NCBI GenBank assembly: GCA_035489575.1
Contig: DATHJY010000011.1
Span: forward strand, 84,514-148,513
DNA from: Verrucomicrobiia bacterium
GTDB lineage: Bacteria; Patescibacteriota; Saccharimonadia; Saccharimonadales; JAGQNK01
Length of the DNA stretch: 64,000 bases
Direction: 5' to 3'
Positions within the stretch are counted from its first letter, which is position 1, and the number at the start of each line of letters is the position of its first letter. Made by a program: the position numbers and the translations under genes. This document shows positions 30,807-47,558 of the stretch, piece after piece. Under the pieces are notes generated by a model. That model was not told the origin of the DNA. It did no database searches and saw nothing but the letters and a program-made list of their open reading frames with translations.

Positions 30807-31220
30807 ATGCCAACAATTAATCAGTTAGTGCGCAAACCGCGCAAGGCTAAGACATCCAAGTCTAAGTCACCACACCTGCAACGTGTGGTCAACAACCTGA
30901 AGACCACCAACTACGAAAAGCCCGCCCCATTCAAACGCGGTGTCTGTGTCAAGGTAACCACCAAGACCCCTAAAAAGCCTAACTCTGCGCTTCGCAAAGT
31001 TGCCCGCGTTCGTCTGAACAACGGCTATGAAGTCTGGGCTTACATTGGCGGCGAAGGCCACAACCTACAAGAACACGCCGTAGTCATGGTTCGTGGTGGT
31101 CGCGTACCGGACCTTCCCGGTGTTCGTTACCACATTGTCCGCGGAACCCTAGACCTCCAGGGTGTCCAAAACCGCAAGAATGGCCGCAGCAAGTACGGCA
31201 CCAAGAAGGAGAGCAAGTAA
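30807..31220 (+). CDS. rpsL: 30S ribosomal protein uS12
   Basis: 137 aa; [13 protein letters not shown]. Confidence 0.97.
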
Positions 31221-31369
31221 TGTCTTTCGCAGCCTTAAGGGAAAAGAGCAGCCAGAACGCGGATTCATTCCGCGTCCTGCGCGATGAAACGGGGTCCCCG
31301 CAAAACCTGTTTTGTGGGGTACAGAAAAACCGCAAGGTTTGTCTCATTACTCCGAAGGAGAGCAAGTAA
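31220..31369 (+). CDS. Mini-ORF 1 of the junction element (49 aa: [49 protein letters not shown])
   Basis: The ATG overlaps the rpsL stop (TAATG). The frame stays open to TAA at 31367-31369, 1 nt before the rpsG ATG. Too short for the ORF track. Confidence 0.45.
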   Translation: MSFAALREKSSQNADSFRVLRDETGSPQNLFCGVQKNRKVCLITPKESK

Positions 31370-31370
31370 G
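31221..31370 (+). repeat. Junction-insertion element copy 1 (core 31238-31347, carrying a nested 36-nt hairpin insertion)
   Basis: Shares the core AGGGAAAAGAGCAGCC...GATGA..GAAAAACCGCAAGGTTTGTCTCAT with three other copies. Flanked by a perfect 16-bp direct repeat, GAAGGAGAGCAAGTAA (31205-31220 and 31354-31369). Confidence 0.85.
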
Positions 31371-31850
31371 ATGCCTCGTAAAGTTACCAAATCACTCGTT
31401 CGTCCTATCAACCCAGACCGTCTATACAACGACGTTATGGTCCAGCGCCTGATCAACCGTGTCATGCTGAATGGTAAAAAGCAATTGGCCGAGCGCCTGG
31501 TATATAACGGCATGCAAGAAGCAGCCGACACTCTCAAGGTCAAAAACCCTGTAGAGGTGTTTACCCAAGCTATGCAAAATGTTCGCCCCTCCATGGAGAC
31601 TCGTTCTCGTCGCGTAGGTGGTGCCAACTACCAGATTCCTTTCGAGGTTAAAGGTCAGCGCCAAAACCACCTGACTATGATGTGGTTCGTAGCCGCAGCC
31701 CGTGCCCGCAAAGGCATGAGCATGCAGAAGCGTCTCGCTCTAGAACTCGTTGACGCCTACAACAGCACCGGCGCAGCCGTTAAGAAAAAAGAAGACACCC
31801 ACAAAATGGCCGAGGCCAACCGCGCCTTTGCCCACTTTGCGCGGAGCTAA
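31371..31850 (+). CDS. rpsG: 30S ribosomal protein uS7
   Basis: ORF 31284..31850, trimmed to MPRKVTKSLVRPINPD... after SD GAAGGAG. Confidence 0.95.
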   Translation: MPRKVTKSLVRPINPDRLYNDVMVQRLINRVMLNGKKQLAERLVYNGMQEAADTLKVKNPVEVFTQAMQNVRPSMETRSRRVGGANYQIPFEVKGQRQNHLTMMWFVAAARARKGMSMQKRLALELVDAYNSTGAAVKKKEDTHKMAEANRAFAHFARS

Positions 31851-31851
31851 C

Positions 31852-32406
31852 ATGTCCGCAGAAGTTCGCACCGGAAAAAGTGTCGTCATAGATCAGCACA
31901 TTGGGCGGCCAGCTGGCAAGCGAGTGTCGCGCCGCCGTGCCTCCTTTGAAGATATTCACGCACACCTAGGTATCAGCCAGCCCGAAAGGAATCGGCTTGG
32001 TGGCCTTATTCAGCCCGGCGACGAATTTCTGCTATTCCTAAATGTAGGTCGCACTCGCAGGCGTACACCACCCGTCATGGGAGTGGGCGTTATCTTACGT
32101 GACCACCTGCAGGAAGGTGACGTAATCTTTAGTGGTGAAATCAAAGTGCCAAAATTAGGTGACCCCACCGAAGAACCAGAAACAAGGCAAGGCACCTTTC
32201 ATTTTGACCCAGAAATGGTAGATAGACTGAGTCGGGACGATTACACCAACGTACCGCTCGCCGCTCGCGGAGCGGCCGACCTCATTGCCACCCGTGTATT
32301 TCATCTCGACCCAGTAGATACCGAATTAGAAACAACGTATGACGCACTCCGAGCCAACGTAGAACCCATGAGCTGGGTCAATTTTCATGAGAGAGTATGG
32401 CCGTGA
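31852..32406 (+). CDS. Hypothetical protein inserted between rpsG and fusA
   Basis: ATG 1 nt after the rpsG stop (GGAGctaacATG). 184 aa (MSAEVRTGKSVVIDQH...) with no recognised domain. Confidence 0.55.
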   Translation: MSAEVRTGKSVVIDQHIGRPAGKRVSRRRASFEDIHAHLGISQPERNRLGGLIQPGDEFLLFLNVGRTRRRTPPVMGVGVILRDHLQEGDVIFSGEIKVPKLGDPTEEPETRQGTFHFDPEMVDRLSRDDYTNVPLAARGAADLIATRVFHLDPVDTELETTYDALRANVEPMSWVNFHERVWP

Positions 32407-32440
32407 AACAAAAGAACATAACGCTTAAGATAGGATAATT

Positions 32441-34528
32441 ATGGCAGCAAAAAAATACCCACTCGATAAGCTCCGCAACATTGGCATTATTGCTCATATT
32501 GACGCCGGCAAAACAACTACAACCGAAGGTATTCTGTACCGCACGGGGCTTAAGCACAAAATTGGTGCCGTTCATGAGGGCGAAACCACCACAGACTGGA
32601 TGGCTCAAGAGCGCGAGCGTGGTATTACTATTGTGTCTGCTGCCGTTACTTGCTACTGGAGAGATCACCAGATCAATATCATCGATACCCCGGGACACAT
32701 CGACTTTACCGTCGAGGTAGAACGTTCGTTGCGCGTTCTAGACGGTGCAGTTGTTGTCTTTGACGGCAAGATGGGCGTGGAATCTCAGTCAGAAACTGTC
32801 TGGCGCCAGGCTACCAAGTACGGTGTGCCTCGTGTCTGCTTTATCAACAAGATCAACCAAACTGGTGGCGATTTCTACAAATCACTCGACACCATTCATG
32901 CCCGCCTGAGCAAGCGCGCATTTCCCATCCACCTGCCTATCGGCTTTGAACAGTCTATTAACGGCATTATAGACCTGGTCAGTCAAAAGGCGTACACCTA
33001 CAAAGAATTCACCGACAAAGAACTTGTAGAAACCGAAGTCCCTGAAGACATGAAAGACAAGGTTGCCAAGTACCGCAGCCTCCTCATCGAAAACGCTGTC
33101 GCCGAAGACGAAGCCATACTCGAGAAGTTCTTCGAGGTTGGCGAAGAAGGTCTGAGTGAAGCTGATGTTAGGCAAGCTATCCGCACAGCCACGCTGGCGG
33201 GTGACTTTTATCCCGTCACTGGTGGCGACGGCCGTGGTGTTATCGTAGAAAAAGTCCTCGATATGGTGGTAGATATTTTGCCATCACCCCTCGACCGTGG
33301 CTCAACCTGGGGCACCCACCCCAAAACTGGTGACGAAATCGAGCGCAAGCCCGATGCTGACCAGCCCATGGCTGGTCTGGCGTTCAAGATCACCACCGAC
33401 CCATTTGTGGGTAAACTCGCTTACTTCCGTGTTTATTCCGGCAAGCTGATCGCTGGCTCTTACATACTGAACACTTCTACCGGCGAGAAAGAACGCGTAG
33501 GCCGCATCGTTCGTATGCAGGCCGACAAACGCGAAGACGTTACCGAAGTAGAAGCCGGTGACATTGCCGCTATCGTGGGCCTCAAGGGCACCACAACGGG
33601 TCACACCCTGGCAGATCCCAATAACCCAATCGTTCTCGAGAGCATCACCTTCCCAGAACCTCCCGTGTCTATCGCCATAGAGCCCAAGACCAAGTCTGAC
33701 CAAGAAAAGATGAGCCTAGCCCTACAGCGCCTGGCAGAAGAAGACCCCACTTTCCGTATCAGAGTAGACGACGAGACCGGCCAGACTATCATCTCCGGCA
33801 TGGGCGAGCTGCATCTGGAGATCCTAGTAGACCGCATGAAGCGCGAATTCTCCGTAGAGGCCAACATTGGTGCGCCACAAGTTGCCTACCGCGAAACCAT
33901 TCGCAAAGACGCCGTCGAGGCAGAGGGCAAGTTTATCCGCCAGAGTGGTGGTCGCGGGCAATACGGTCATGTATGGCTACGCCTCAGCCAGAACGAGGCC
34001 GGCAAAGGCTTTGAGTTCATCAACTCCATCAAGGGTGGTATTGTTCCCAATGAATACATCAAGCCCGTCCAAGAAGGTATCAAAGAAGCCATGAACAACG
34101 GCGTTATTGCCGGCTACCCCATGGTAGATATCAAGGCTGAGCTTTACGACGGCAGCTACCACGATGTTGACTCCAACGAAATGGCCTTCAAGATCGCCGG
34201 CAGTATGGGCCTCCAAGAAGGTGCCAAAAAAGCCAATCCCGTACTCCTAGAACCTGTCATGAAGGTCGTAGTCGTCACCCCTGAAGAATTCATGGGTGAC
34301 GTTATCGGAGACCTCAACAGCAAACGCGGACGCATAGAGTCCATGGAAGATCTCAGCGCCGGCATCAAAGAAATCACTGCATTTGTACCACTTGGCGAAA
34401 TGTTTGGTTACACTACCAACCTCCGCAGCAATACCCAAGGTCGCGCTAGTTCCAGCATGGAATTGGATCATTACGCTGACGTGCCAAGCCACGTAGCAGA
34501 AGCAATCGTTGCCAAAGCAGGGAAGTAA
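32441..34528 (+). CDS. fusA: Elongation factor G
   Basis: 695 aa; AHIDAGKTTTTE, DTPGHIDF. Confidence 0.97.
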   Translation: MAAKKYPLDKLRNIGIIAHIDAGKTTTTEGILYRTGLKHKIGAVHEGETTTDWMAQERERGITIVSAAVTCYWRDHQINIIDTPGHIDFTVEVERSLRVLDGAVVVFDGKMGVESQSETVWRQATKYGVPRVCFINKINQTGGDFYKSLDTIHARLSKRAFPIHLPIGFEQSINGIIDLVSQKAYTYKEFTDKELVETEVPEDMKDKVAKYRSLLIENAVAEDEAILEKFFEVGEEGLSEADVRQAIRTATLAGDFYPVTGGDGRGVIVEKVLDMVVDILPSPLDRGSTWGTHPKTGDEIERKPDADQPMAGLAFKITTDPFVGKLAYFRVYSGKLIAGSYILNTSTGEKERVGRIVRMQADKREDVTEVEAGDIAAIVGLKGTTTGHTLADPNNPIVLESITFPEPPVSIAIEPKTKSDQEKMSLALQRLAEEDPTFRIRVDDETGQTIISGMGELHLEILVDRMKREFSVEANIGAPQVAYRETIRKDAVEAEGKFIRQSGGRGQYGHVWLRLSQNEAGKGFEFINSIKGGIVPNEYIKPVQEGIKEAMNNGVIAGYPMVDIKAELYDGSYHDVDSNEMAFKIAGSMGLQEGAKKANPVLLEPVMKVVVVTPEEFMGDVIGDLNSKRGRIESMEDLSAGIKEITAFVPLGEMFGYTTNLRSNTQGRASSSMELDHYADVPSHVAEAIVAKAGK

Positions 34529-34530
34529 CC

Positions 34531-34761
34531 ATGGAATTTCCTGGACAAAGAGCGGCCGAAAGGCTCACAGATGCCATAAAAGAGCGAGCCCGGCAATGGT
34601 TCGTTAGGCTAGGCGACCAAGTGTTTGAAGCTATGATGGTTCCACCAAAAGACGACAACGAAATCGTGCCACAAGACCTGGCAGCGGCTGACGTGTGCCC
34701 TGACGAACCAGCCCCTCCAGAGGAAACACGCCGACCCGACCAACTCGCCAGCCGTTCGTAG
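34531..34761 (+). CDS. Small hypothetical ORF coupled to the fusA stop
   Basis: GGGAAGtaaccATG; 76 aa with an acidic, Pro-rich C-terminus. An antisense ORF of similar size also exists. Confidence 0.35.
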   Translation: MEFPGQRAAERLTDAIKERARQWFVRLGDQVFEAMMVPPKDDNEIVPQDLAAADVCPDEPAPPEETRRPDQLASRS

Positions 34762-34918
34762 GGGTAACTATCAAAATTCCAATCCACCCCGTTAGCACCT
34801 GCCCAAAGAGTCGCCCAAGCCTCTTTACAACTGGGGCGATATCAGATAAGATTATCCGGTAACTCGTGTGAGTTATCTATGCTCATGCAACTAATTAATT
34901 TTAAGGAGATCTACCTCT

Positions 34919-36103
<1,185 letters not shown>

Positions 36104-36152
36104 GTATCTCGCCCATTTGTCAGGGCGCATCGCGGGCAAAAACCTGCGACAG

Positions 36153-36187
36153 AAAAAGGAGCAGTACCATTTGTACAGCTCCTTTTT
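36153..36187 (+). terminator. Intrinsic terminator after tuf
   Basis: aaaaaggagc ... gctccttttt (10-bp stem, inner gtac/gtac). A-tract before and T-tract after, so potentially bidirectional. Confidence 0.65.
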
Positions 36188-36314
36188 CGTGCTCGGCCTT
36201 TGCTCCACGCTGCACTCCTGAAAATGCCCGAGCCATAGCGACTCACCCCAAAGATCCCTCAGCCAGAGAGAGTTTTCTTTTTGGTACATGCTTGGCGTAG
36301 AATTATTACATACT

Positions 36315-36734
36315 ATGAACGAAACCGGCGAAACGTCTGATAGCCCCGACCTCCTAGAGGTCAGTCCGCTCCCTATTCGCCGCAGGATTAGGCGCGCGCT
36401 GAGAGGTTCGGTGGAATTCTGCCCTCCTTGTCCCGCCAAAGGCTCGTGTGCGGGCAAAGTCACACCCCAGGTAGGAATTAGGCGGGCAAAAAACTCGTAT
36501 GACACCCCAGTAATACTTGCCGAGGTGATATTCACGGATAGAGATGGACTACGTAGTAAACCTAAAGTTGCTGGCATAGATCGGTTTGATGACGCCAAGT
36601 CCGAAGAGTTAGCATACCGACTCGAAAACCGAGTAGGTCGTTGTAACGGCCCCGCCGACGCTAACTGCCCAGCGCTTACCAACGACGCCATAAAACACTT
36701 AGCCGCAACCGTTATGGGTGACATAGACCAGTAG
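36315..36734 (+). CDS. Hypothetical Cys-containing protein between tuf and rpsJ
   Basis: Part of ORF 36288..36734 (MNETGETSD...CPPCPAKGSC...). No SD and an uncertain start. The opposite-strand 239-aa ORF was rejected. Confidence 0.35.
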   Translation: MNETGETSDSPDLLEVSPLPIRRRIRRALRGSVEFCPPCPAKGSCAGKVTPQVGIRRAKNSYDTPVILAEVIFTDRDGLRSKPKVAGIDRFDDAKSEELAYRLENRVGRCNGPADANCPALTNDAIKHLAATVMGDIDQ

Positions 36735-36860
36735 GCACCTTCCATTTCCGGCATAAATGTTGTAAAATCATATCTATAAACTAATTGTGATGACTAAAAG
36801 TCGTTGTGCATGCTCTCTTATAGCAGTTCAAAGATGTTACATCACCAAGGAGATAGTTCT

Positions 36861-37226
36861 ATGGCTGAAGCCAAGAAACCAGCAGCAAAGACTGCTGCTA
36901 AAAAAACCGAAGCACCCGCTGGCAAACAACGTATTCGTATTCGCCTAAAGGCCTACGACCATAAAGTAATCGACCAATCTGCCAAGCAGATCGTTGACAC
37001 CGCCCTGCGTACCGGCGCCACCATTGCCGGCCCGATCCCACTGCCTACCAAGAAGACGCTTTACACCGTTGTCAAAAGCCCGCACGTCTACAAAAAAGGA
37101 CGTGAGCAATTCGAGATGCGCGTACACAAACGCCTTATCGACGTCCTAGAGCCCACCCCCAAGACCATCGACAGCCTCATGAACTTGAGCCTGCCAGCTG
37201 GTTGCGACGCCGAAATTAAGATGTAA
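36861..37226 (+). CDS. rpsJ: 30S ribosomal protein uS10 (with Lys/Ala-rich N-terminal extension)
   Basis: ORF 36804..37226, trimmed to the ATG after [24 protein letters not shown]. Confidence 0.92.
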
Positions 37227-37263
37227 CATTCGTTGCATAAATAGTTATTTTATGCTATAATAT

Positions 37264-37292
37264 GTACCTCTGTGAATAGCAGAGGTACTTTT
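37264..37292 (+). terminator. Intrinsic terminator directly after rpsJ
   Basis: gtacctctg tgaatag cagaggtac followed by tttt. It separates rpsJ from rplC. Confidence 0.6.
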
Positions 37293-37321
37293 ATATGTCA
37301 GTACCAGAGAAGGGTGTTTGA

Positions 37322-37368: not shown

Positions 37369-37410
37369 TCGACCGCAACTTGTCCCATTCGACCAGACCA
37401 AGGAGGCCTT

Positions 37411-38047: not shown

Positions 38048-38092
38048 TCATCATGGTGGCCATCCACACCCTGGCTCTGGCCACCATGATGA
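38048..38092 (+). repeat. Conserved palindrome H1 (TCATCATGGTGGCCA / TGGCCACCATGATGA)
   Basis: 15-bp perfect stem with a 15-nt loop, starting 7 nt after the stop of 37411-38040. Confidence 0.8.
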
Positions 38093-38130
38093 CACAACAA
38101 TTTACTTATATGATCATGTACAATACGCTT

Positions 38131-38403
38131 ATGGCCTCAAAAACAAAAAAGAAACAAACCTCACAGGAATTAGACAGCATTTATATCCTCAAACTTGTGG
38201 TGTATCTGGTGCTTGGGTCGCTCTGGCTCAAAATAACCGACGGGCAAGACACTCAGATACCTATTCCTATCGGCTTTTTCATCGGCCTGGTATTTGCCAG
38301 TCATGACCACATTCAGCTGGATCGCAAGATTGGGTATGCCGTACTGCTCGTGGCCATGCTCATTGGCTTTTGGGCACCGTTTGGCGTCTACGTTGCCACA
38401 TAA
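38131..38403 (+). CDS. Small membrane protein
   Basis: Part of ORF 38053..38403. Start placed after the palindrome (MASKTKKKQTSQ...). Two or three hydrophobic helices. Start uncertain. Confidence 0.45.
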   Translation: MASKTKKKQTSQELDSIYILKLVVYLVLGSLWLKITDGQDTQIPIPIGFFIGLVFASHDHIQLDRKIGYAVLLVAMLIGFWAPFGVYVAT

Positions 38404-40199: not shown

Positions 40200-41053
40200 T
40201 GGCCATTAAAGCATACAAGCCTACCACTCCTGGTCAGCGCGGTATGACCACTCAGGACATGAGTGCTATTACCACCAAGAAGCCACTGAAGTCCTTGACA
40301 GTCATCAAGAAAAAGCATTCTGGCCGTAATAACCAGGGCCGTATTACTACTCGCCACCGCGGTGGTGGTGTCCGTAAGTTCTATCGCCTGATTAACTTCA
40401 ACCTGCCCGCAGGTACTACGGCAACTATCGAACATATCGAATACGACCCTAACCGCAGCGCTCGTATTGCGCGCGTCAAAGACCAAGACAACGTGTACCA
40501 CTATGTATTGGCTGCCAAGGATATGAAAGTTGGTCAAACCATTGCCAGTGGCGAAGAAATTGCCATCGAAAACGGCAACCGCCTACCGCTCAAAAACATT
40601 CCAGTTGGTAGCGTTATCCACGCCATCGAACTGCAACCTGGTCGTGGTGCCCAATTAGCCCGCAGCGCTGGCAACAGTGCCCAGCTGATGGCCAAAGAAG
40701 GAACTTACGCCCAGGTCAAATTGCCCTCTGGTGAAGTCCGTCTGGTCAACATTAACTGCACCGCCAGTTTAGGTGTTATTGGCAACGAACAACATCAGAA
40801 CATCAAGATTGGTAAAGCAGGACGCAATCGCCACAAGGGCAAGCGCCCAGGTGTGCGTGGTGTTGTTATGAACGCGGCCGATCACCCTCATGGTGGTGGT
40901 GATGGTGGCCGTCACGGCGTCGGTGGTGGTAAGAACCACGGTACAGCTCCCAAGACCCCTTGGGGCCAAAAGACCCTGGGCTTCAAGACCCGCCGCCGCA
41001 AGAGCACAACCAAGTTTATCTTAAAGAGCCGTCACGCGGCGAAGAGGAAATAA
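40199..41053 (+). CDS. rplB: 50S ribosomal protein uL2
   Basis: 284 aa; ADHPHGGGDGG. Confidence 0.96.
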   Translation: MAIKAYKPTTPGQRGMTTQDMSAITTKKPLKSLTVIKKKHSGRNNQGRITTRHRGGGVRKFYRLINFNLPAGTTATIEHIEYDPNRSARIARVKDQDNVYHYVLAAKDMKVGQTIASGEEIAIENGNRLPLKNIPVGSVIHAIELQPGRGAQLARSAGNSAQLMAKEGTYAQVKLPSGEVRLVNINCTASLGVIGNEQHQNIKIGKAGRNRHKGKRPGVRGVVMNAADHPHGGGDGGRHGVGGGKNHGTAPKTPWGQKTLGFKTRRRKSTTKFILKSRHAAKRK

Positions 41054-41065
41054 GGGAGTATATAG

Positions 41066-41341
41066 ATGAGTCGTTCACTCAAAAAAGGGCCATTCATAGA
41101 TCCCAAGCTCGCCAAGAAAGTGGCCGCACTGGGTAATGAAGACCGCACCATCATCAAGACATGGGCTCGTTCGAGCACCATCAGCCCAGACTTTGTTGGC
41201 CGTACTATTGCTGTACACAATGGCAAAGTTCATGTACCAGTATTCGTTACCGAAAACATGGTTGGTCACAAACTCGGCGAGTTTAGCCCAACCCGTAAAT
41301 TCCGCAGTCATGGCGGCAAGCTCGCGAAAGGCAAGAAGTAA
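41066..41341 (+). CDS. rpsS: 30S ribosomal protein uS19
   Basis: 91 aa; [10 protein letters not shown]. Confidence 0.95.
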
Positions 41342-41721
41342 TGGCAGTTACCGCTATCGCTAAAGGCGTTCGCATGAGCCCACGCAAAGTCGGTGTTGTA
41401 GCCGCTTTGGTTCGTGGCCGCACCGTAGCTGACGCGCTGACAATCCTTCAGCACACCCCTCGTCGCTCGGCATTGCCTGTCAAGAAAGTTATCGAAAGTG
41501 CCCGGGCTAACGCCGACCACAACCACAACTACAAGGCAGACACCTTGCAGATTGTGTCCATCCAGGTCAGCCCTGGCCCTCGTTTTAAACGGTACCGTCC
41601 CGCAGCTCATGGTCGCGCATTGCCATTCCAGCGACGCACCAGCCATATTCATGTAGTCGTCGATGGCGAGCAGCGAGCAGCCAAAAAGTCAGCATCATCT
41701 GCGAAAAAGGAGACAAAATAA
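41341..41721 (+). CDS. rplV: 50S ribosomal protein uL22
   Basis: 126 aa; TAATG-coupled; correct operon position. Confidence 0.92.
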   Translation: MAVTAIAKGVRMSPRKVGVVAALVRGRTVADALTILQHTPRRSALPVKKVIESARANADHNHNYKADTLQIVSIQVSPGPRFKRYRPAAHGRALPFQRRTSHIHVVVDGEQRAAKKSASSAKKETK

Positions 41722-42353
41722 TGGGACAGAAGGTAAATCCAATTAGCATGCGTCTTCAGGTCAATAAAGACTGGCGCAGCAAGTGGTTCGCTTCCAAGCG
41801 CGACTATGCAAAGTTCTTGGGCCAAGACCTCAAGATCCGCAAACTAATCCAAGACAAGGTCGGTTCACGTGGTGCTATCAACAAGGTAGACATCGAACGT
41901 TCGCCTAACCTGGTATCAGTCACTATCACCACCGCCAAGGCCGGTGTAGTTATCGGTCGCGGTGGCGCAGGCGCCCAGGAGCTCAAGGCAGCTATAGAGA
42001 AAATCTATGGTTTCCCGGCTCGTGTAAATATTGAAGAAATCAAAAAGCCAGAACTGTACGCCAAGCTCGTTGCCGAGAACATCGCCCACCAGTTGGAGCG
42101 CCGTATTGCTTTCCGGCGAGCCATGAAACAGTCCGCAGGCGCAACCATGCGCGCTGGTGCCAAAGGCATCCGTATTGAAATAGCCGGACGCCTCGGCGGT
42201 GCCGAAATGTCTCGCCGCGAGAAAACAGTCGAAGGCTCAGTGCCACTGCACACCCTTCGTGCTGATGTCGACTACCACGCAGCCCGTGCCAAGTATCCAG
42301 GTGCCGGTATTATCGGTATCAAGGTCTGGATCTACAAAGGGGAGGTTAATTAA
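41721..42353 (+). CDS. rpsC: 30S ribosomal protein uS3
   Basis: 210 aa; MGQKVNP..., KH domain, GRLGGAEMSR. Confidence 0.95.
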   Translation: MGQKVNPISMRLQVNKDWRSKWFASKRDYAKFLGQDLKIRKLIQDKVGSRGAINKVDIERSPNLVSVTITTAKAGVVIGRGGAGAQELKAAIEKIYGFPARVNIEEIKKPELYAKLVAENIAHQLERRIAFRRAMKQSAGATMRAGAKGIRIEIAGRLGGAEMSRREKTVEGSVPLHTLRADVDYHAARAKYPGAGIIGIKVWIYKGEVN

Positions 42354-42475
42354 TATGATTTCTTCTGTTGTTTTAAGGGAAAAGAGCAGCCAGAACGCGG
42401 ATTCATTCCGCGTCCTGCGCGATGAGAAAAACCGCAAGGTTTGTCTCATGGCTTGCAAAGGGGAGGTAAACTAAT
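42354..42475 (+). repeat. Junction-insertion element copy 2 (core 42376-42449)
   Basis: Core identical to copy 1 apart from the nested insertion. Flanking 23-nt direct repeat CAAAGGGGAGGT(T/A)AA(T/C)TAATATG at 42335-42357 and 42456-42478 (21 of 23). Confidence 0.85.
42355..42474 (+). CDS. Mini-ORF 2 (39 aa: [39 protein letters not shown])
   Basis: ATG 1 nt after the rpsC stop; TAA 1 nt before the rplP ATG. Corresponds to the tail of ORF-track entry 42199..42474. Confidence 0.45.
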
Positions 42476-42889
42476 ATGCTTATCCCGAACCGAACCAAAC
42501 ACCGTAAGGTGTTCAAGGGCCGCGTTCGCGGACCCGCCACCACTGGCAATCATATTGCCTTTGGTCAGTTTGCCCTGCAAGCCCAAGGTCACGAGCGCAT
42601 CACCAGTCGTCAGATCGAGTCCGCTCGTCAGGCAATGACCCGCTACGTGAAACGTGGTGGTAAAATCTGGATTCGTATCTTCCCACACACACCTGTCAGC
42701 CGCAAGGCGCTCGGTACCAAGATGGGTAGCGGCAAAGGTAACCCAGAATTCTTCGTAGCCAAAGTCCGTCCCGGCACCATTATGTTCGAGATGCAAGGTG
42801 TGCCAGAAGAAACTGCACGCGAGGCAATGCGCCTGGCTGCCCACAAACTCCCTGTCAAGACCAAATTCTTGGTGAAGGAGGATGTTTAA
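42476..42889 (+). CDS. rplP: 50S ribosomal protein uL16
   Basis: 137 aa; [16 protein letters not shown]. Confidence 0.95.
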
Positions 42890-42890
42890 G

Positions 42891-43094
42891 ATGCAAAAAA
42901 TGACTGAAATTCGTAAATTATCAACCACAGAGCTAGCAAACGGAAGTACTAAGCTCCGTGAAGAAATCGCCGAACTAAAGCGCGGTCTTCACATGGGCGA
43001 AGTCACCAACGTCAAAGTCGTGCGCACAAAGCGCAAAGAACTGGCACGTATGCTGACCGTTCTGAGTGAGCAGCTCGCAAAGGAGACAAAATAA
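42891..43094 (+). CDS. rpmC: 50S ribosomal protein uL29
   Basis: ORF 42882..43094. The ATG at 42891 has better SD spacing (GAAGGAGG), but 42882 or 42900 remain possible. Confidence 0.85.
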   Translation: MQKMTEIRKLSTTELANGSTKLREEIAELKRGLHMGEVTNVKVVRTKRKELARMLTVLSEQLAKETK

Positions 43095-43210
43095 TGAGTT
43101 TTTCCATGGTCCTCAGGGAAAAGAGCAGCCAGAATGCGGATTTATTCCGCATGCTGCGCGATGAGAAAAACCGCAAGGTTTGTCTCATTACCCCGAAGGG
43201 GGCAAAATAA
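43094..43210 (+). CDS. Mini-ORF 3 (38 aa: [38 protein letters not shown])
   Basis: The ATG overlaps the rpmC stop (TAATG). The TAA overlaps the rpsQ ATG (TAATG). Confidence 0.45.
   Translation: MSFSMVLREKSSQNADLFRMLRDEKNRKVCLITPKGAK
43095..43209 (+). repeat. Junction-insertion element copy 3 (core 43115-43188)
   Basis: The core carries a compensatory variant of hairpin A (ATGCGGA tttat TCCGCAT). Flanking repeat at 43078-43096 and 43194-43212 (16 of 19). Confidence 0.85.
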
Positions 43211-43539
43211 TGGCACGTACATTAGTGGGTGTGGTTGCGTCTGACAAAGCCGACAAGACAATTGTTGTCCGGGTTGATACCAGAAAGACCCATCCGGTTT
43301 ATAAGAAGCAGTACACCACCAGCAAGAAGTTTATGGCTCACGACGAGCAAAACGAGGCACACACAGGTGACCGTGTTGAGATTTCCGAAACCCGTCCCCT
43401 GAGTGCTCGCAAACGTCACACGCTCAAGCGAGTGATCGAGCACGCCGCCATTCAGCACGTCGAAACCGTCGACAAAGCAGTAGCAGAAGTGACTGGCACC
43501 AAAGAAAAAGAAGAAACGGAAGCCGAGGAGAAGAAGTAA
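43210..43539 (+). CDS. rpsQ: 30S ribosomal protein uS17 (Glu/Lys-rich C-terminal extension)
   Basis: ORF 43180..43539, trimmed to [20 protein letters not shown]. Confidence 0.92.
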
Positions 43540-43907
43540 TGATTCAGCAAGAATCTCGCCTCAGTGTCTGTGATAACAGCGGTGCCAAGGAAATCCTATG
43601 CATCCGCGTACTGGGCGGCACCCGTCGGCGCTACGCCCGTGTAGGCGATGTTATTGTGGCTACCGTCAAACAAGCCAGTCCAACTGGTACCGTCAAAAAG
43701 AAGTCAGTTATCCGTGCAGTTGTTGTACGCACCAAGGACACCATTCGTCGCAAGGATGGCTCGACCATTAAGTTTGACGATAATGCAGCTGTTATTATCG
43801 GTGACGATAAAAACCCCAAGGCTACCCGTATCTTTGGCCCAGTCCCACGCGAACTGCGTGACCAAGGCTATGCCAAGATCATCAGCCTAGCACCGGAGGT
43901 CCTATAA
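43539..43907 (+). CDS. rplN: 50S ribosomal protein uL14
   Basis: 122 aa; [18 protein letters not shown]. Confidence 0.96.
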
Positions 43908-44233
43908 TGAGTGATCAGATCTATAAAATTCGCCTAAAGAAAGGCGACACTGTCGTCGTTCGTGCAGGCAAATATAAGGGCAAGTCCGGCAAGATTACTG
44001 CCGTACACCCTAGCCTCAACAAAGTGACCGTTGAGGGTATCAATATCGTCAAGAAACACCAGAAGCCAAACCGAGCTCACCCTCAGGGCGGCATCCTGGA
44101 AATCACCAAGCCTATAGATGTCAGCAAGGTTGGCATCAGTGACGGCGGCAAGCCCTCACGTATTGGCTACAAAGTCGACAAAGACGGTAAAAAGACTCGC
44201 ATCGCCAAGAAGTCTGGGAAGGAGATCAAATAA
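43907..44233 (+). CDS. rplX: 50S ribosomal protein uL24
   Basis: 108 aa; [16 protein letters not shown] (KOW motif). Confidence 0.93.
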
Positions 44234-44820
44234 TGGCTGAAGCAAAAACCGCTACAAAAGCGCCAGCAACTGCTGCACGCCTGAAAGCTCTGTACACCAG
44301 CAAGTTCGCCGACGAGCTACAGAAGGAGCTTGAGCTCCCTAACCGCAACCAGGTTCCAAAATTGGAAAAGATTGTTCTGAACGTTGGACTTGGCAAAGCC
44401 AAGGACGACAAAAAGATCATGGAAGTTGCCGCCAATACACTTCGCAAGATCACCGGCCAGCAACCCATAGAGACTGTTGCCAAGAATTCTATCGCCGGTT
44501 TCAAGCTGCGCGAAGGCAACAAGATCGGCCTAAAAGTTACATTACGCGGTAACTATATGTACGAATTCATGGATCGCCTGATTAACATTGTGCTACCACG
44601 TTTTCGTGACTTCCACGGCGTTAAGACCACTGCCTTTGACAAGTCCGGCAACTTTAGCCTGGGCCTCACCGACCAATCAGTCTTTCCTGAGCTTACCTTT
44701 GAAGAGACAACAACCGTCCATGGCATGCAAGTGGTATTTGTAATCACCTGCCAAGAACCCGCACATGCCCGTGCATTGCTAGAAAAGTTTGGTATGCCCT
44801 TTCAGAAAGGAGCTAAGTAA
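44233..44820 (+). CDS. rplE: 50S ribosomal protein uL5
   Basis: 195 aa; correct operon position and conserved blocks. Confidence 0.94.
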
Positions 44821-45089
44821 TGGCTAAGAAATCTATGATTGCCCGCGATTTGAAGCGCCAAAAGATGGCAGATCGCTTTGCAGCCAAGCGAGCCGAATTG
44901 AAAAAGGTTGGCGACCGCGACGGTCTGCATAATCTGCCGCGCAACAGTTCGCCCACACGGCGCAAGAACCGGTGTGTCGAAACCGGCCGGCCGCGTGGCT
45001 TTATGCGCCAATTCGGCCTGAGCCGCATTAGTTTCCGCGAACACGCAAGCAAGGGCGAAATCCCTGGTGTAACAAAATCAAGCTGGTAA
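44820..45089 (+). CDS. rpsN: 30S ribosomal protein uS14 (long, non-zinc type)
   Basis: 89 aa with C-terminal [21 protein letters not shown]. No CxxC pairs. Confidence 0.92.
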
Positions 45090-45106
45090 GAAAGGAGATA
45101 GCTTTC

Positions 45107-45508
45107 GTGAGTACTACATCAACCGACCCAATCGCAGACATGCTGTCTCGCATTCGTAACGCTATTGCTGTTAGCAAGAGCGAGATCAGCATGCCACACA
45201 GCAAAGTTAAAGAATCTGTTGCCAAGCTGCTAAAAGACAATCGCTACGTAGATAGCGTTAACGTCGAAGACGCACGTGTTGGCAAAACACTAAAAATTAC
45301 CATCAACGGCCCGCAAAAGAACTCCCGGATCACCGAGATCAAGCGCATGAGTACCCCTGGCCGTCGTTACTACGCCAGCGCAGACCAGATCCCAACGGTC
45401 AAGCGTGGCCGTGGCGTTGTCATCATTAGCACTTCCAAGGGCATGATGACTGGCGCCGAAGCCAAGAAGCAAGGTGTTGGTGGTGAATTAATTTGTAAGA
45501 TTTACTAA
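45107..45508 (+). CDS. rpsH: 30S ribosomal protein uS8
   Basis: 133 aa with a GTG start after AAGGAG. DPIADMLSRIRNA. Confidence 0.94.
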   Translation: MSTTSTDPIADMLSRIRNAIAVSKSEISMPHSKVKESVAKLLKDNRYVDSVNVEDARVGKTLKITINGPQKNSRITEIKRMSTPGRRYYASADQIPTVKRGRGVVIISTSKGMMTGAEAKKQGVGGELICKIY

Positions 45509-45520
45509 AGGAACAAAGTA

Positions 45521-46060
45521 ATGAGTCGTATAGGAAAACTGCCCATCGATATACCGAGCGGCGTGACAATCACTGTCGACCCTGACTGGATTACTGTAGC
45601 GGGGAGCAAAGGCACCCTCAAGCAGTTCACCATGCCGGGCGTGACAGTTAAACAAGAAGACAATCAAGTTGTCGTCACCCGCATAAATGACGAAGCGCCA
45701 AACCGTGCCAAGCACGGGCTGATGCGCACACTGGTTGCCAACATGATAGAAGGCGTCAGCAAAGGCTTTGAGAAAAAGCTAGAGCTAAACGGCGTCGGCT
45801 TCCGTGTAGCGTTGGCTGGTCCTGGTCTGAAGTTCAATATTGGTTTCTCGCACGAGGTCAATTACGCACTGCCACAGGGCGTATCCGCCAAAGTAGAAAG
45901 TAATATTATTACAGTGTCTGGCATAGACAAACAACAGGTCGGCCAAGTCGCCGCTGAGATTCGTGCCCTCAAGAAGCCAGAACCCTACAAGGGCAAAGGT
46001 ATTAAGTACGTTGGCGAGCGGATTATCCGTAAGTCAGGTAAGTCAGGTAAGGACAAGTAG
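45521..46060 (+). CDS. rplF: 50S ribosomal protein uL6
   Basis: 179 aa; MSRIGKLPI. Confidence 0.94.
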   Translation: MSRIGKLPIDIPSGVTITVDPDWITVAGSKGTLKQFTMPGVTVKQEDNQVVVTRINDEAPNRAKHGLMRTLVANMIEGVSKGFEKKLELNGVGFRVALAGPGLKFNIGFSHEVNYALPQGVSAKVESNIITVSGIDKQQVGQVAAEIRALKKPEPYKGKGIKYVGERIIRKSGKSGKDK

Positions 46061-46061
46061 T

Positions 46062-46418
46062 ATGAACAGAATAACTCATAAGATCCAGAATCTTTCCCGC
46101 CGACGCAATCGTGTTCGTTCAACCGTGTCCGGCACTGCTGAACGTCCTCGCCTGAGCGTGCACGTCAGCAACAAGCACGTGAGTGCACAGATTATTGACG
46201 ATACCGCTCACAAAACCATTGCGCAGATCAGTACGGTTGGCCAAAAGGATGCCCTGGGCACCATGACCGAGCGCGCTACCTGGGTTGGTACCCAAATTGC
46301 AAAAAAGGCTAAGACTGCCAAAGTTCGTCAGGTCGTATTCGACCGCGGTGGCCGTCTGTACCATGGCCGCATAAAGGCCCTGGCTGACGCAGCCCGCGCC
46401 GGAGGATTGGAGTTCTAA
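46062..46418 (+). CDS. rplR: 50S ribosomal protein uL18
   Basis: ORF 45963..46418, trimmed to the ATG 1 nt after the rplF stop (MNRITHKIQNLSRRRNRVRS). Confidence 0.92.
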   Translation: MNRITHKIQNLSRRRNRVRSTVSGTAERPRLSVHVSNKHVSAQIIDDTAHKTIAQISTVGQKDALGTMTERATWVGTQIAKKAKTAKVRQVVFDRGGRLYHGRIKALADAARAGGLEF

Positions 46419-46419
46419 T

Positions 46420-46980
46420 ATGGCAGACCAAAGAGAACAACGAAGAGGCCGGCACGACAACCGACCGCCGCAAGAAGAAAAACAGTTCGACGAGCGCGTT
46501 GTAAACATCGACCGTGTTGCCCGTGTGGTTAAGGGCGGTCGCCGCTTCCGATTCCGCGCGCTGGTTGTCCTTGGCGACCACAAGGGTAGGGTAGGCATTG
46601 GCATCTCAAAGGGTGCTGACGTGACTACAGCCGTTGCCAAGGCCGTAGAAGTAGCCAAGAAGAGTATGGTGACCATCCATATGTACAACGACACTATCCC
46701 GCACGAGGCCGAGACGAAAGTCAGTGGTGCTCGTATCCTCATTAAGCCAGCCGCTCCTGGTACTGGTCTGATTGCAGGCGGTGTTGTTCGTACCGTGCTG
46801 GAAGTAACTGGTATCAAGAATGCATTGTCCAAGTCACTTGGCTCAAGCAACAAAATCAATATTGCCTACGCCACCCTAGCTGCACTGCAAAGTGTTGTGC
46901 CTGCTGACAAGTGGGTGACGAATCAGGGCGAGAAGAAAACCTCCACGAAAAAGTCCGTAGCCAAGGAGAGCGTAAAATGA
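46420..46980 (+). CDS. rpsE: 30S ribosomal protein uS5
   Basis: 186 aa; VVKGGRRFRFRALVVLGD. Confidence 0.95.
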   Translation: MADQREQRRGRHDNRPPQEEKQFDERVVNIDRVARVVKGGRRFRFRALVVLGDHKGRVGIGISKGADVTTAVAKAVEVAKKSMVTIHMYNDTIPHEAETKVSGARILIKPAAPGTGLIAGGVVRTVLEVTGIKNALSKSLGSSNKINIAYATLAALQSVVPADKWVTNQGEKKTSTKKSVAKESVK

Positions 46981-47084
46981 AAGTAAGGGAAAAGAGCAGC
47001 CGGAGCGGGCGAATTTATTTCGCCGCCCCGCGCGATGAGAAAAACCGCAAGGTTTGTCTCATCACAGCTGTGGAGGCCAAATAA
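46977..47084 (+). CDS. Mini-ORF 4 (35 aa: [35 protein letters not shown])
   Basis: The ATG overlaps the rpsE stop (ATGA). TAA at 47082-47084 directly abuts the rplO ATG at 47085. Confidence 0.4.
   Translation: MKVREKSSRSGRIYFAAPRDEKNRKVCLITAVEAK
46981..47084 (+). repeat. Junction-insertion element copy 4 (core 46986-47062; most diverged)
   Basis: Same 5' block (AGGGAAAAGAGCAGCC) and hairpin B. Hairpin A is replaced by a different but still complementary sequence (CGG a GCGGGCGAA tttat TTCGCCGC c CCG). Confidence 0.8.
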
Positions 47085-47558
47085 ATGAAGTACAACGAAT
47101 TAAACCTAACCAAAAAGCGCAGCCCCAAGCGAGTGGGACGCGGCATCGCAGCTGGACAGGGTAAGACTGCCGGTCGGGGAACCAAGGGCCAAGGCGCTCG
47201 CAAGAGCGGTGGTGTTCGCCCCGGATTTGAAGGTGGCCAGACACCCCTTACTAAGCGACTGCCTAAGTTGCCTGGCTTTACGTCTCACCGACCAAAGGTC
47301 GAGAACGTCTATACCGGCCAACTCGAAGCTTTTGCGGGCAAAACCGCTGACAACTTTACGGTCGCAGAAGCTGGCTTAACCACCAGCCCCTACGTCAAAG
47401 TAAAGCTGATAGTCCAGGGCGACATTACCAAGAAAGTTACCGTCAAACTCCAGGGTGCCAGCGAGAGCGCCATTGCAGCCGTCCAAAAAGCCGGTGGTAG
47501 CTTTGACAAAGTGCCGCAAGTAAAACGTCAGCCAAAAGAAAAGCCAGAAACCAAGTAG
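47085..47558 (+). CDS. rplO: 50S ribosomal protein uL15
   Basis: 157 aa; GRGIAAGQGKTAGRGTKGQ. No bL30 gene between rpsE and rplO. Confidence 0.94.
   Translation: MKYNELNLTKKRSPKRVGRGIAAGQGKTAGRGTKGQGARKSGGVRPGFEGGQTPLTKRLPKLPGFTSHRPKVENVYTGQLEAFAGKTADNFTVAEAGLTTSPYVKVKLIVQGDITKKVTVKLQGASESAIAAVQKAGGSFDKVPQVKRQPKEKPETK

Follow-up and report, generated by a model that had tools for sequence, protein, structure and literature searches.

Several described repeats and regulatory sites bear on the DNA analysed here. ERIC/IRU and Correia (NEMIS) MITEs are small, structured, co-transcribed inter-gene repeats that can alter mRNA processing or stability; we know of no coupling ORFs described for them. 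REP/BIME elements, which are mobilised by RAYT, and elements derived from IS200/IS605 present a conserved hairpin beside conserved single-stranded bases and show an orientation bias. SINE-like elements have, to our knowledge, not been described in bacteria. The E. coli rpsL-rpsG intercistronic region, the position of copy 1 below, is the site of the S7 translational operator, in a coupling-regulated operon. MIRUs are mycobacterial and typically occur as VNTR loci, with units of 46-101 bp repeated in tandem. As described in PMC12548453, citing Supply et al. 1997, they insert at start codons and carry a coupled internal ORF. Rickettsia palindromic elements (RPEs) are hairpin repeats that survive in translated sequence, where they keep the frame open and the peptide is incidental (PMC10969869).

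The 64-kb stretch of DNA that we analysed (the window) holds four copies of a short structured repeat. We consider it probable, at roughly 70%, that they represent a family of small insertion elements, non-autonomous and distributed across Saccharibacteria, whose copies at ribosomal-protein (r-protein) gene junctions relay coupling through mini-ORFs. Mobility is suggested by distribution and duplications. The copies examined showed neither terminal inverted repeats nor conserved termini, and no transposase or reverse-transcriptase gene was found near copies.

The family is undescribed, and its closest precedent, compared by description and not by sequence, is the mycobacterial MIRU. Going by PMC12548453, both are short, dispersed, intercistronic operon repeats that are oriented with the genes and thought to be mobile, with start codons as their insertion points; in both, an internal ORF is coupled to its neighbour by a stop/start overlap (-4 nt spacing), and insertion would barely disturb expression, owing to that ORF. 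Start-codon insertion with a coupled internal ORF, as reported for MIRUs, thus provides a precedent where the preliminary description had known of none. Unlike MIRUs, the element is present in single copy per site, shows covariation in a two-hairpin core that is conserved throughout a whole class, occurs also in tRNA 5' leaders and in antisense, and has long, variable target duplications. It shares with RPEs a hairpin repeat that keeps the frame open and an incidental peptide, but RPEs lie in-frame inside protein-coding genes and join the host protein, whereas the element is a separate mini-cistron between genes. Like ERIC/IRU and Correia (NEMIS) repeats it is small, structured, co-transcribed and intergenic or intercistronic; unlike them it has no inverted repeats at its ends, and its duplications span 13 to ~60 nt where theirs is a fixed TA. 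A conserved hairpin (P2) beside conserved single-stranded bases and an orientation bias, compatible with single-stranded-DNA recognition, recall REP/BIME and IS200/IS605-type elements, yet these lie adjacent to a fixed 4-5-nt target and are not known to duplicate it, whereas the element duplicates its target. The REP signature GTAG is absent from the element, and no Y1/HUH gene was seen near copies. Target duplications of variable length, a 3' end that is defined while the 5' junction varies, and a structured RNA-like core without coding for its own mobility are shared with SINEs and non-LTR retroposons; unlike SINEs, the element has no A-tail and no reverse transcriptase known to partner it, and an RNA intermediate would be hypothetical. 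Finally, the E. coli S7 operator is conserved and site-specific, whereas here all 19 unbiased relatives have an empty rpsL/rpsG junction.

Four copies at ribosomal-protein gene junctions

A core of ~75 nt had been reported four times, precisely at rpsL/rpsG, rpsC/rplP, rpmC/rpsQ and rpsE/rplO, and a motif search bore this out. The conserved, purine-rich 5' strand, (A)AGGGAAAAGAGCAGCC, is followed by hairpin P1, in which sequence is free and pairing constant, and by the nearly invariant hairpin P2 (AUGAGAAAAAC / GUUUGUCUCAU). A third mini-hairpin, P3 (NNCGAAGNN or GCCGGAGGC), is frequent and may double as a Shine-Dalgarno (SD) sequence; the outer flanks are short and lineage-specific.

31238 to 31347, + strand: copy 1 core, with the 5' single strand AGGGAAAAGAGCAGCC and hairpins P1 and P2
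~31251 to 31282, + strand: P1 of copy 1
31284 to 31287 plus 31324 to 31347, + strand: P2 of copy 1
31288 to 31323, + strand: extra hairpin of copy 1, 36 nt within the 5' arm of P2 (12 codons, frame kept)
42376 to 42449, + strand: copy 2 core, P1 and then P2 with a GCAA loop
43115 to 43188, + strand: copy 3 core; 4 of its 74 positions depart from copy 2, a compensatory P1 pair among them
46986 to 47062, + strand: copy 4 core, with a distinct P1 subfamily (+3 nt, fully compensated)

Exact matches to AGGGAAAAGAGCAGCC number four in the window, all on the + strand with no mismatches (31238, 42376, 43115 and 46986), against 0.71 matches in a shuffled control that tolerated three mismatches. The 31-nt 3' half of the core is identical in three copies, with none expected; copy 1 has the same 3' half, interrupted by its 36-nt insert. 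A profile made from the four copies detected no fifth in the 64 kb. The bordering genes, identified by Pfam, are S12/S7, S3/L16, L29/S17 and S5/L15. An assembly artefact was rejected, as copies 2 and 3 are reproduced with 100% identity in two further assemblies (ENA ERZ27268085 and JGI 3300020034).

Empty and filled sites in relatives

Eight matches to the element were found in an unbiased set of 80 loci (812 kb) selected solely by L3 homology. None of the window's junctions is filled in the relatives that cover them (rpsL/rpsG 0/19, rpsC/rplP 0/37, rpmC/rpsQ 0/30, rpsE/rplO 0/29), and the empty junctions carry the canonical TAATG or a close variant. Other junctions in the set are occasionally filled, namely rplC/rplD (2/69), rplW/rplB (4/50) and rplE/rpsN (1/32). 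In the closest relative, three of the window sites are empty. Across genomes, no fewer than 16 distinct r-protein junctions carry the element, and the P1 of copy 4, at rpsE/rplO, is only 1 nt away from that of a copy at a different junction, rpmC/rpsQ, in relative L108. The comparison, with its TAATG-type empty sites and a filled set that differs between genomes, upholds the original proposal of an insertion over an ancient leader: the element entered many different sites in different genomes. Counted against this reading, the core is kept far beyond neutral expectation, in hosts whose L3 proteins are just 64-78% identical, and such strong conservation could mean a host function.

A family spread over several genomic contexts

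The family numbers at least 130 copies, nearly all in Saccharibacteria MAGs. A genome scan returned at least 120 DNA stretches with the element, and public metagenomes contain ~70 called mini-ORFs of the family; of the 80 matches listed, almost every one has Saccharibacteria, Saccharimonadales or Saccharimonadia in its record title. An exact 27-nt pattern served to pick the 120 genome loci, which inflates conservation in that set. The 137 classified copies comprise 36 junction "relay" ORFs, 33 copies at 2-11 nt upstream of tRNA genes, and 68 in 5' leaders, at gene ends or antisense at gene starts. Specific targeting of coupled r-protein junctions, as initially suggested, is contradicted by this distribution: tRNA 5' leaders make up about a quarter of the copies, and other contexts half. 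Copies in tRNA leaders are nearly all in sense orientation and lack flanking repeats, a placement resembling a functional leader more than junk. Insertions in antisense are present at tpiA, an msrA-like gene and tRNA-Pro. Downstream protein genes mostly serve translation or housekeeping (L4, S17, L2, S14, L10, EF-Tu, SSB, RpoC and ClpB).

These contexts bear on a reading that we hold to be unlikely but worth weighing, namely that the core is mainly a host-serving cis-acting RNA (a processing site, 5' stabiliser or global-regulator site) near tRNAs and highly expressed genes. Junction copies would then be functional intercistronic punctuation, and the duplications merely the route of new copies. 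The 33 tRNA-leader copies, on the same strand as the tRNA gene and past sigma-70-like -10 boxes, fit such a role, as do the bias towards translation and housekeeping genes, the near invariance of P2 and the unpaired segments over deep host divergence while P1 covaries, compensatory changes in P2 too in divergent members, and optional hairpin expansions like those of functional RNAs; several genes also begin 5-9 nt past P3 with no obvious SD. Occupancy, however, is sporadic, no orthologous r-protein junction being filled in a majority of relatives. The window's three tRNA genes all lack the element, which is found on 35 of 74 tRNAs, under half, in element-bearing loci. Antisense copies and long perfect flanking duplications, the latter indicating recent insertion, also speak against it, and Rfam returned no match even at E <= 10.

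Duplicated targets and rebuilt junctions

The flanking-repeat counts given in the preliminary description, 16/16 for copy 1, 21/23 for copy 2, 16/19 for copy 3 and a weak repeat for copy 4, were correct on recount.

31205 to 31220, + strand: upstream direct repeat of copy 1, GAAGGAGAGCAAGTAA, made up of the native SD and the rpsL stop
31354 to 31369, + strand: copy 1 downstream direct repeat, 16/16, overlapping the P3 mini-hairpin CUCC-GAA-GGAG (31350-31360)
42335 to 42357, + strand: copy 2 upstream direct repeat CAAAGGGGAGGTTAATTAATATG
42456 to 42478, + strand: copy 2 downstream direct repeat, 21/23, including the SD and rplP start
43080 to 43096, + strand: copy 3 upstream direct repeat AAGGAGACAAAATAATG
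43196 to 43212, + strand: downstream direct repeat of copy 3, AAGGGGGCAAAATAATG, 15/17, contributing to the P3 hairpin CCCC-GAA-GGGG

Compared with random pairs of native junctions from the operon, the repeats of copies 1 and 2 stand out, that of copy 3 is borderline and that of copy 4 does not. The copy 2 repeat (21/23) lies above all 105 background pairs, and the 16-nt exact run of copy 1 compares with a longest run of 11 nt in 78 pairs. For copy 3 (17/23), 2 of 105 pairs are equally good and the longest exact run, 11 by eye, equals the background maximum; for copy 4, 56 of 105 are equally good, which is chance level. Family-wide, a flanking repeat score of at least 12 was obtained for 24 of 128 copies versus 2 of 128 in the control, and perfect repeats of 50, 44, 42 and 26 nt lie in unique coding sequence. 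Target-site duplication is real across the family, although of no fixed length and missing from many copies: recent insertions have the target duplicated on both flanks, over 13 to ~60 nt. With a stop/start overlap as target, SD, stop and start are thereby regenerated on each side. Rebuilding of the junction in this way holds for some copies; many others at junctions lack a flanking repeat and terminate in the element-borne hairpin GCCGGAGGC followed by GCAAGTAATG. Some copies bring their own SD and TAATG, so the element itself can supply GGAGG...TAATG as an alternative to duplication.

Spread through an RNA intermediate, as a bacterial SINE-like retroposon or template-switching cDNA, strikes us as improbable. 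A processed leader RNA, running from the transcription start to just past P2 or P3, would undergo reverse transcription before insertion at highly transcribed loci. This would suit the variable duplication length (13 to ~60 nt), the variable segment between upstream repeat and core (1 to 39 nt), the lack of conserved termini and inverted terminal repeats, the mostly sense orientation at tRNA and r-protein sites, and the highly expressed targets; in one subfamily the 3' end is defined, ...CATNAGGCGAAGCCGC, with the repeat directly after it, and in size the inserted unit approximates the tRNA 5' leader that RNase P releases, a link that we infer. Against it, copies have neither a linked reverse transcriptase nearby nor a priming tail, A-rich or other, and some are antisense, at tpiA, the msrA-like gene and tRNA-Pro. 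DNA-level template switching at hairpins, or some transposase, would leave similar footprints, and a search for a source/daughter copy pair with a common 5' flank found none.

Mini-ORFs and a proposed relay of coupling

Each window copy is a mini-ORF of 35-49 codons that extends from the upstream stop codon to a point on or beside the downstream start codon.

31220 to 31369, + strand: mini-ORF of copy 1, 49 codons; the A of its ATG also belongs to the rpsL stop (TAATG), and its TAA lies 1 nt ahead of the rpsG ATG at 31371
42355 to 42474, + strand: mini-ORF of copy 2, 39 codons, beginning 1 nt past the rpsC stop and stopping 1 nt ahead of the rplP ATG at 42476
43094 to 43210, + strand: copy 3 mini-ORF, 38 codons; TAATG overlaps with both the rpmC stop and the rpsQ start
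46977 to 47084, + strand: mini-ORF of copy 4, 35 codons, overlapping the rpsE stop as ATGA, with a TAA that directly abuts the rplO ATG at 47085

Paired cells reach 93.8%, compared with 81.4 ± 0.4% in shuffles, and cells changed on both sides number 384 versus 121 ± 13, a value reached by none of 500 shuffles. P1 variants rewrite the encoded peptide, and single-nucleotide changes in the P2 loop convert EKNRKVCL to EKNRRFVS with the nucleotides otherwise kept. Because P1 covaries strongly, selection is on the nucleic-acid structure and not on the peptide. It is hard to credit that the repeats encode, as paralogues, a genuine small protein of 35-49 aa expressed together with ribosomal proteins. 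The four window copies are indeed open in one frame, with indels in multiples of three (+3 in copy 4, +36 in copy 1), and gene callers give ~70 homologous mini-ORFs with a conserved REKSSQ...; but the middle of the peptide is wholly altered wherever P1 has compensatory substitutions, the C-terminal half is frame-shifted (EKNRKVCL to EKNRRFVS or EKNVVCL) while nucleotides are kept, and the C-termini duplicate the tail of whichever gene lies upstream. Moreover, over half of the copies fail to form ORFs bounded by genes, antisense copies read in other frames, and no precomputed Pfam domain is on record for any of the mini-ORFs. An ancient conserved intercistronic operator of r-protein operons, such as an S7-type autoregulatory site, would place copy 1 exactly where S7 acts in E. 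coli and would let one regulator bind one sequence at four junctions, but it is refuted by the empty orthologous sites (0/19, 0/37, 0/30 and 0/29), and the element also lies upstream of tRNA and unrelated genes.

For the insertion-element reading, the geometry of the 36 relay copies is informative. The mini-ORF start lies at -1 relative to the upstream stop in 19 and at -4 in nine; its stop lies at -1 relative to the next start in 15, and at -4 to +3 in the others. A ribosome ending the upstream gene would restart at the overlapping ATG, translate through the mini-ORF, melting P1 and P2, and then terminate on or beside the next gene's start, so that coupling would be relayed and not broken; the peptide would be a by-product. 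Copies are probably tolerated in essential r-protein operons because they can be read as a tiny ORF that hands ribosomes on, and only those forming a short ORF (33-49 codons) would persist there. All but one of the r-protein-junction copies checked have an open frame; for duplication-type insertions, we put the prior of the in-frame condition alone at ~1/3. In many non-junction copies, a TGA interrupts the reading frame of the junction copies. That every junction copy is a mini-ORF had escaped the preliminary description.

Copies of the element in the window

The window carries four copies of the element, at rpsL/rpsG, rpsC/rplP, rpmC/rpsQ and rpsE/rplO (copies 1 to 4), as the preliminary description had reported. 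The 16-mer AGGGAAAAGAGCAGCC has four exact occurrences, every one on the + strand, against 0.71 matches in shuffled sequence with three mismatches permitted, and Pfam agrees on the flanking genes (S12/S7, S3/L16, L29/S17 and S5/L15). The 3' half, 31 nt long, is identical in three of the four copies; in copy 1 a 36-nt insert splits it. No fifth copy in the 64 kb was retrieved by a profile HMM of the four. Copies 2 and 3 were recovered at 100% identity in two independent assemblies from other samples and are therefore no assembly artefact.

Overlooked in the preliminary description, all four copies are complete small ORFs in one common frame. Each mini-ORF has its start on or beside the upstream stop (TAATG, ATGA) and its own stop on or beside the downstream start. 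The copies differ in length by +3 nt (P1 hairpin, copy 4) and +36 nt (P2 hairpin, copy 1), and both differences keep the frame.

Mini-ORFs and extra hairpin of the element in the window
31220-31369, + strand: copy 1 mini-ORF, 49 codons
42355-42474, + strand: copy 2 mini-ORF, 39 codons
43094-43210, + strand: copy 3 mini-ORF, 38 codons
46977-47084, + strand: copy 4 mini-ORF, 35 codons
31288-31323: extra hairpin GGGGTCCCCGCAAAACCTGTTTTGTGGGGTAC inside P2 of copy 1, 36 nt

Among the sequences compared, the 36-nt hairpin occurs only within the element. Homologues sit at slightly shifted positions in P2 at two loci of relatives (L038, L130; L-numbers denote such loci throughout) and in the metagenomic mini-ORF peptides P0025, P0052 and P0060.

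Structure is conserved and the peptide is not

The core of about 75 nt begins with a purine-rich single strand, (A)AGGGAAAAGAGCA, preceded by a conserved (A/T)AGG. Hairpin P1, closed by GCC...GGC pairs, is followed by a short linker and by hairpin P2 (AUGAGAAAAACC-loop-GGUUUGUCUCAU, with a single A.G mismatch). Copies 1 and 3 have a further mini-hairpin, P3 (CUCC-GAA-GGAG and CCCC-GAA-GGGG), that includes the Shine-Dalgarno (SD) sequence of the next gene. When 127 DNA copies were aligned, 93.8% of cells proved paired, versus 81.4 +/- 0.4% in shuffles, and both-side changes number 384 cells versus 121 +/- 13, a value equalled by none of 500 shuffles. Sliding the 3' partners lowered pairing to 38-51%. 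Double changes occur in nine of the 12 P1 pairs; P2 is invariant, a property of this set, which was chosen by sequence pattern. Divergent members show compensatory P2 changes (GAUAGGA...UCCUAU; AACCCG...CGGGUG) as well as branched versions of P1.

A profile of the four peptides recovered about 70 mini-ORFs of 33-50 aa from public metagenomes. REKSSQ is common to them, the middle is rewritten wherever P1 differs, and a base gained or lost in the P2 loop turns the tail into EKNRRFVS or EKNVVCL, with the surrounding nucleotides unchanged. We therefore rejected a small-protein gene family: the peptide alters with compensatory P1 substitutions and frame shifts, and the nucleotides and pairing are kept. 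This pattern of substitution argues firmly for selection on structure, not on peptide. At least one frame is open across the core in every copy, so an open core by itself comes easily. The 33-50-aa "hypothetical proteins" of Saccharibacteria r-protein operons are best read as repeat copies, not genes.

Rfam gave no match in the window at gathering thresholds; at E <= 10 the sole match was Sphinx_1, at a meaningless 10.9 bits. Inspected by eye for self-cleaving ribozyme features, the core has neither a hammerhead core (CUGANGA...GAAA) nor a nested HDV-like topology. Threading by eye, which is a matter of opinion, found no fit to hammerhead, HDV-like, K-turn (box C/D), riboswitch consensus sequences or boxA/put-type antitermination. 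By eye we also noted a candidate purine triplex of the 5' strand GAAAAGAG with the P2 purine strand, both segments being invariant. With its covarying P1, invariant P2 and 5' strand, and strong association with tRNA leaders, the core represents an unclassified structured nucleic acid.

Empty and filled sites

We assembled an unbiased set of 80 metagenome loci (812 kb), picked solely for encoding a relative of the window L3 (53-84% identity). It contained only eight element matches, in six loci.

Occupancy of r-protein junctions in the unbiased set (filled/assessed)
rpsL/rpsG: 0/19
rpsC/rplP: 0/37
rpmC/rpsQ: 0/30
rpsE/rplO: 0/29
rplC/rplD: 2/69
rplW/rplB: 4/50
rplE/rpsN: 1/32

Empty junctions consist of TAATG or a near variant; at rpsL/rpsG of L164, for instance, the empty site AAGAAGGAGAGCAAGTAATGCC is what would be left of the window sequence on removal of the element and one repeat. 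Counting all loci together, the element occupies at least 16 different r-protein junctions in some genome or other, always in sense orientation. P1 sequence tracks the genome, not the site: its median identity is 0.78 within a locus versus 0.52 between loci, and five filled rpmC/rpsQ junctions hold five different P1s. Similarly, P1 of window copy 4 differs by 1 nt from that of the rpmC/rpsQ copy of L108, where rpsE/rplO is empty. Set against the refuting condition of the preliminary description, an ancient leader at fixed junctions, empty sites in relatives and genome-specific P1 favour insertion. An r-protein autoregulatory leader or operator was rejected on the same grounds, conservation at orthologous sites being absent (none filled at the four junctions occupied in the window). 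Presence or absence at a junction offers a ready strain marker.

A class-wide family

Scanning one genome per species with the pattern GAAAAGAGCAGCC-N18-40-GCGATGAGAAAAAC yielded at least 120 matching stretches. Among the 80 matches listed, the titles name Saccharibacteria, Saccharimonadales or Saccharimonadia, bar three MAGs, two of them labelled simply "bacterium" and the third "Patescibacteria group". Closed Saccharibacteria genomes, CP025011.1 and CP064992.1, are among the matches. The family spans the class and is not confined to junctions. The preliminary description had the element targeting coupled r-protein junctions, a claim that falls because the family also occupies tRNA leaders and other contexts.

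Genomic contexts of 137 classified copies
33/137: 2-11 nt upstream of a same-strand tRNA gene
36/137: relay mini-ORF between two co-oriented genes
68/137: elsewhere (5' leaders 10-30 nt before starts, just past stops, antisense at gene starts)

The tRNA-leader copies cover 13 amino-acid specificities and lie downstream of sigma-70-type -10 boxes. Other downstream genes belong mostly to translation and housekeeping (L4, S17, L2, S14, L10, S18, EF-Tu, SSB, RpoC, ClpB, RNase III). We quote orientation for tRNA and homology-defined r-protein sites only, because a naive longest-ORF caller called the window's own rplP side antisense. An outward promoter within the element was discarded, the -10 boxes being upstream of the core, as was a -35/-10 pair built from P2, from which transcription would begin inside the tRNA.

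The tRNA promoters at tRNA-leader loci (for example L066, L103, L043, L042, L105, L014, L109) have an extended -10, TGnTAnAAT, followed directly by a conserved motif, YACCCCTGTT, which may be a discriminator or start-site element. Three MAGs (L008, L092, L094) share another motif, CTGTGCCGCAACGGTAA, 15-25 nt ahead of the core; Rfam did not recognise it, and its reading as the end of 5S rRNA was a guess without support.

Flanking duplications

Each insertion had been described as bracketed by a duplication of the local junction. Native r-protein junctions in the window are themselves much alike, with a mean of 11/23 identical positions and a maximum of 20/23. Against this background, the repeat of copy 2 (21/23) and that of copy 1 (a 16-nt exact run versus a longest background run of 11 nt) stand out, that of copy 3 is borderline and that of copy 4 is indistinguishable from chance. 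Family-wide, a flanking repeat score of at least 12 was reached by 24/128 copies versus 2/128 in the control, and perfect repeats of 50, 44, 42 and 26 nt lie in unique coding sequence (L047, L053, L052 and L100). Duplication is thus real in the family. Most copies overall lack a repeat, among them nearly every tRNA-leader copy and many of those at junctions, which carry at their end an element-borne hairpin, GCCGGAGGC, followed by GCAAGTAATG, and so supply an SD and stop/start of their own (L004, L035, L060, L070, L071, L113, and L012 at rpsL/rpsG). Nor are these target-site duplications in the classical sense, since they range from 13 to about 60 nt. Repeat and core are separated by 1-39 nt on the 5' side and 3-13 nt on the 3' side; in one subfamily the 3' end ...AGGCGAAGCCGC immediately precedes the repeat (L064, L100).

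Two gene starts bear antisense copies in several MAGs: that of tpiA in four (L033, L045, L072, L123) and that of an msrA-like gene in three (L046, L053, L097). These copies carry different P1 types, with flanking-repeat identity from 100% to about 80%, and their recurrence suggests hot spots or gene conversion between repeats. An upstream ORF there begins in the duplicated N-terminal codons and crosses the reverse-complemented core; in L053, read by eye, it ends in TAATG on the real start. L119 holds, on the minus strand at ~6958-7053, an antisense copy immediately next to the 5' end of a tRNA-Pro gene, whose first 15 nt are duplicated as the flanking repeat; this is the sole tRNA-associated copy with a clear flanking repeat.

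A proposed translated relay at gene junctions

In the 36 relay copies, which are readable as mini-ORFs joining the upstream stop to the downstream start, upstream spacing between the mini-ORF start and the stop of the preceding gene is -1 in 19 and -4 in nine. Downstream spacing is -1 in 15, -4 in three and 0 to +3 in 16, with a full range of -8 to +3. All but one of the r-protein-junction copies checked are open from junction to junction, divergent ones in another frame (L185, L021:7023). For a duplication-type insertion to end on the duplicated stop, inserted length plus repeat must equal 2 mod 3, a condition whose prior we estimate at about one third per event. From these frames we infer that insertions breaking the coupling chain would have been removed by selection.

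We propose that a ribosome terminating at the upstream gene would reinitiate on the overlapping ATG of the mini-ORF, translate it, unwinding P1 and P2, and terminate at the regenerated or element-borne junction before reinitiating on the next gene. The element would then illustrate a way for a repeat to settle harmlessly, as a translated relay cistron, in the operons that are most conserved and most tightly coupled in a streamlined genome of ~1 Mb, and would be a natural counterpart of the bicistronic relay design of expression engineering.

Mobility and function of the core

Two accounts were weighed. The element is probably selfish and mobile, as sporadic occupancy, recent perfect duplications, genome-specific P1 subfamilies and copies in both orientations suggest. 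Clustering of 1,115 neighbouring ORFs returned housekeeping families only, with no transposase or reverse transcriptase among them, and a search for source/daughter pairs with common 5' flanks gave only orthologous sites and generic SD-TAATG similarity. The other account gives the core a host or mechanistic function. It is favoured by core conservation far beyond neutral among carriers whose L3 proteins are only 64-78% identical, by tight spacing and sense orientation ahead of tRNA genes, by the P1 subtype AAAATGTATTCCATTTT, found in tRNA leaders in 13/18 cases and in no relay copy, and by the optional hairpin modules.

As to copying, a route through RNA or by template switching would be in keeping with duplications of differing length, with the one defined 3' end (...AGGCGAAGCCGC) and with a 5' junction that varies; a route through DNA is also possible. 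A more specific proposal, which we regard as a long shot, is that the core is a functional RNA that propagates via an RNA intermediate. Set free as a discrete leader, for instance where RNase P cuts in front of tRNAs, it would be retroposed or template-switched into other highly transcribed loci, yielding duplications of variable length; the near-invariant single-stranded bases and P2 would be its recognition or catalytic part. If true, this would make the element a bacterial counterpart of SINEs.

Comparison with known systems

The literature searched contained no described Saccharibacteria or Patescibacteria repeat or RNA motif matching the element, and the family is real and undescribed there. 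The further claim that no repeat family behaves in this way was incorrect, given the precedent of mycobacterial MIRUs. In a 2025 review (PMC12548453, citing Supply et al. 1997), these are described as apparently mobile repeats that insert at start codons, with an internal ORF coupled to the gene at -4 spacing, an arrangement that minimises the effect on expression. Compared by description, MIRUs appear to be the closest described phenomenon. Both are short repeats dispersed in intercistronic operon regions in gene orientation, with an internal ORF overlapping the stop and start of the flanking genes. Unlike MIRUs, which typically form tandem VNTR arrays, the element has one unit per site (a partial tandem copy occurs only in L011). 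It differs also in its covarying two-hairpin core, class-wide spread, use of tRNA leaders, long variable duplications and host phylum. With the element, a phenomenon known from mycobacterial MIRUs alone would reach into the Candidate Phyla Radiation.

Other mobile repeats are more distant. A strict MITE has terminal inverted repeats and a fixed short duplication, whereas the element has no such termini, its repeat-to-core sequence differs from copy to copy, and its duplication is variable and mostly absent. IS200/IS605-derived and REP elements make no target duplication, use a fixed tetra- or pentanucleotide and depend on a Y1/HUH partner; the element has long duplications, and no transposase-like family recurs among the neighbouring ORFs. 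Like a SINE retroposon, it combines target duplications of variable length with a defined 3' end (the L064 and L100 subfamily), but it has no A-rich tail and no reverse transcriptase in the neighbouring ORF clusters. Rickettsia RPEs are an in-gene analogue (PMC10969869).

Other inserts and genes at r-protein loci

Further inserts were observed at these junctions. A second, unrelated family of 93-115 nt occurs at rpsL/rpsG of L152 and rpsC/rplP of L108, with the common ends TTTTAGRAGTGAGRAG ... CTTCGCGACTGAAAGGAGC. A third, of 151-168 nt, lies at rpsC/rplP of L137 and L171; it begins with ATGACTTCGTCATYCC, after which come short AT-rich repeats resembling CAATTAACAATT. Inserts of ~210 nt beginning on TAATG at rpsL/rpsG of L137 and L174 may encode a small protein. 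The 109-nt insert at rpmC/rpsQ of L171 ends with GCCGGAGGCGAAGTCTGATG, the SD hairpin module of many element 3' ends. The presence of at least two unrelated insert families suggests that inserts in these genomes find a general safe harbour at coupled junctions.

Additional genes of the cluster
34531-34761: 76-aa ORF directly after fusA, a called gene in L205, no Pfam match
36861-37226: S10 (rpsJ), from gene calls on the identical contig L205
37411-38040: 209-aa ORF between rpsJ and rplC, no Pfam match
38053-38403: 116-aa ORF between rpsJ and rplC, no Pfam match

In the window (46980-47085) and all relatives examined, rpsE is followed directly by rplO, the L30 gene being absent, which fits the Candidate Phyla Radiation. 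Beside rplC, 23 of the unbiased loci carry a homologue of the 116-aa ORF.
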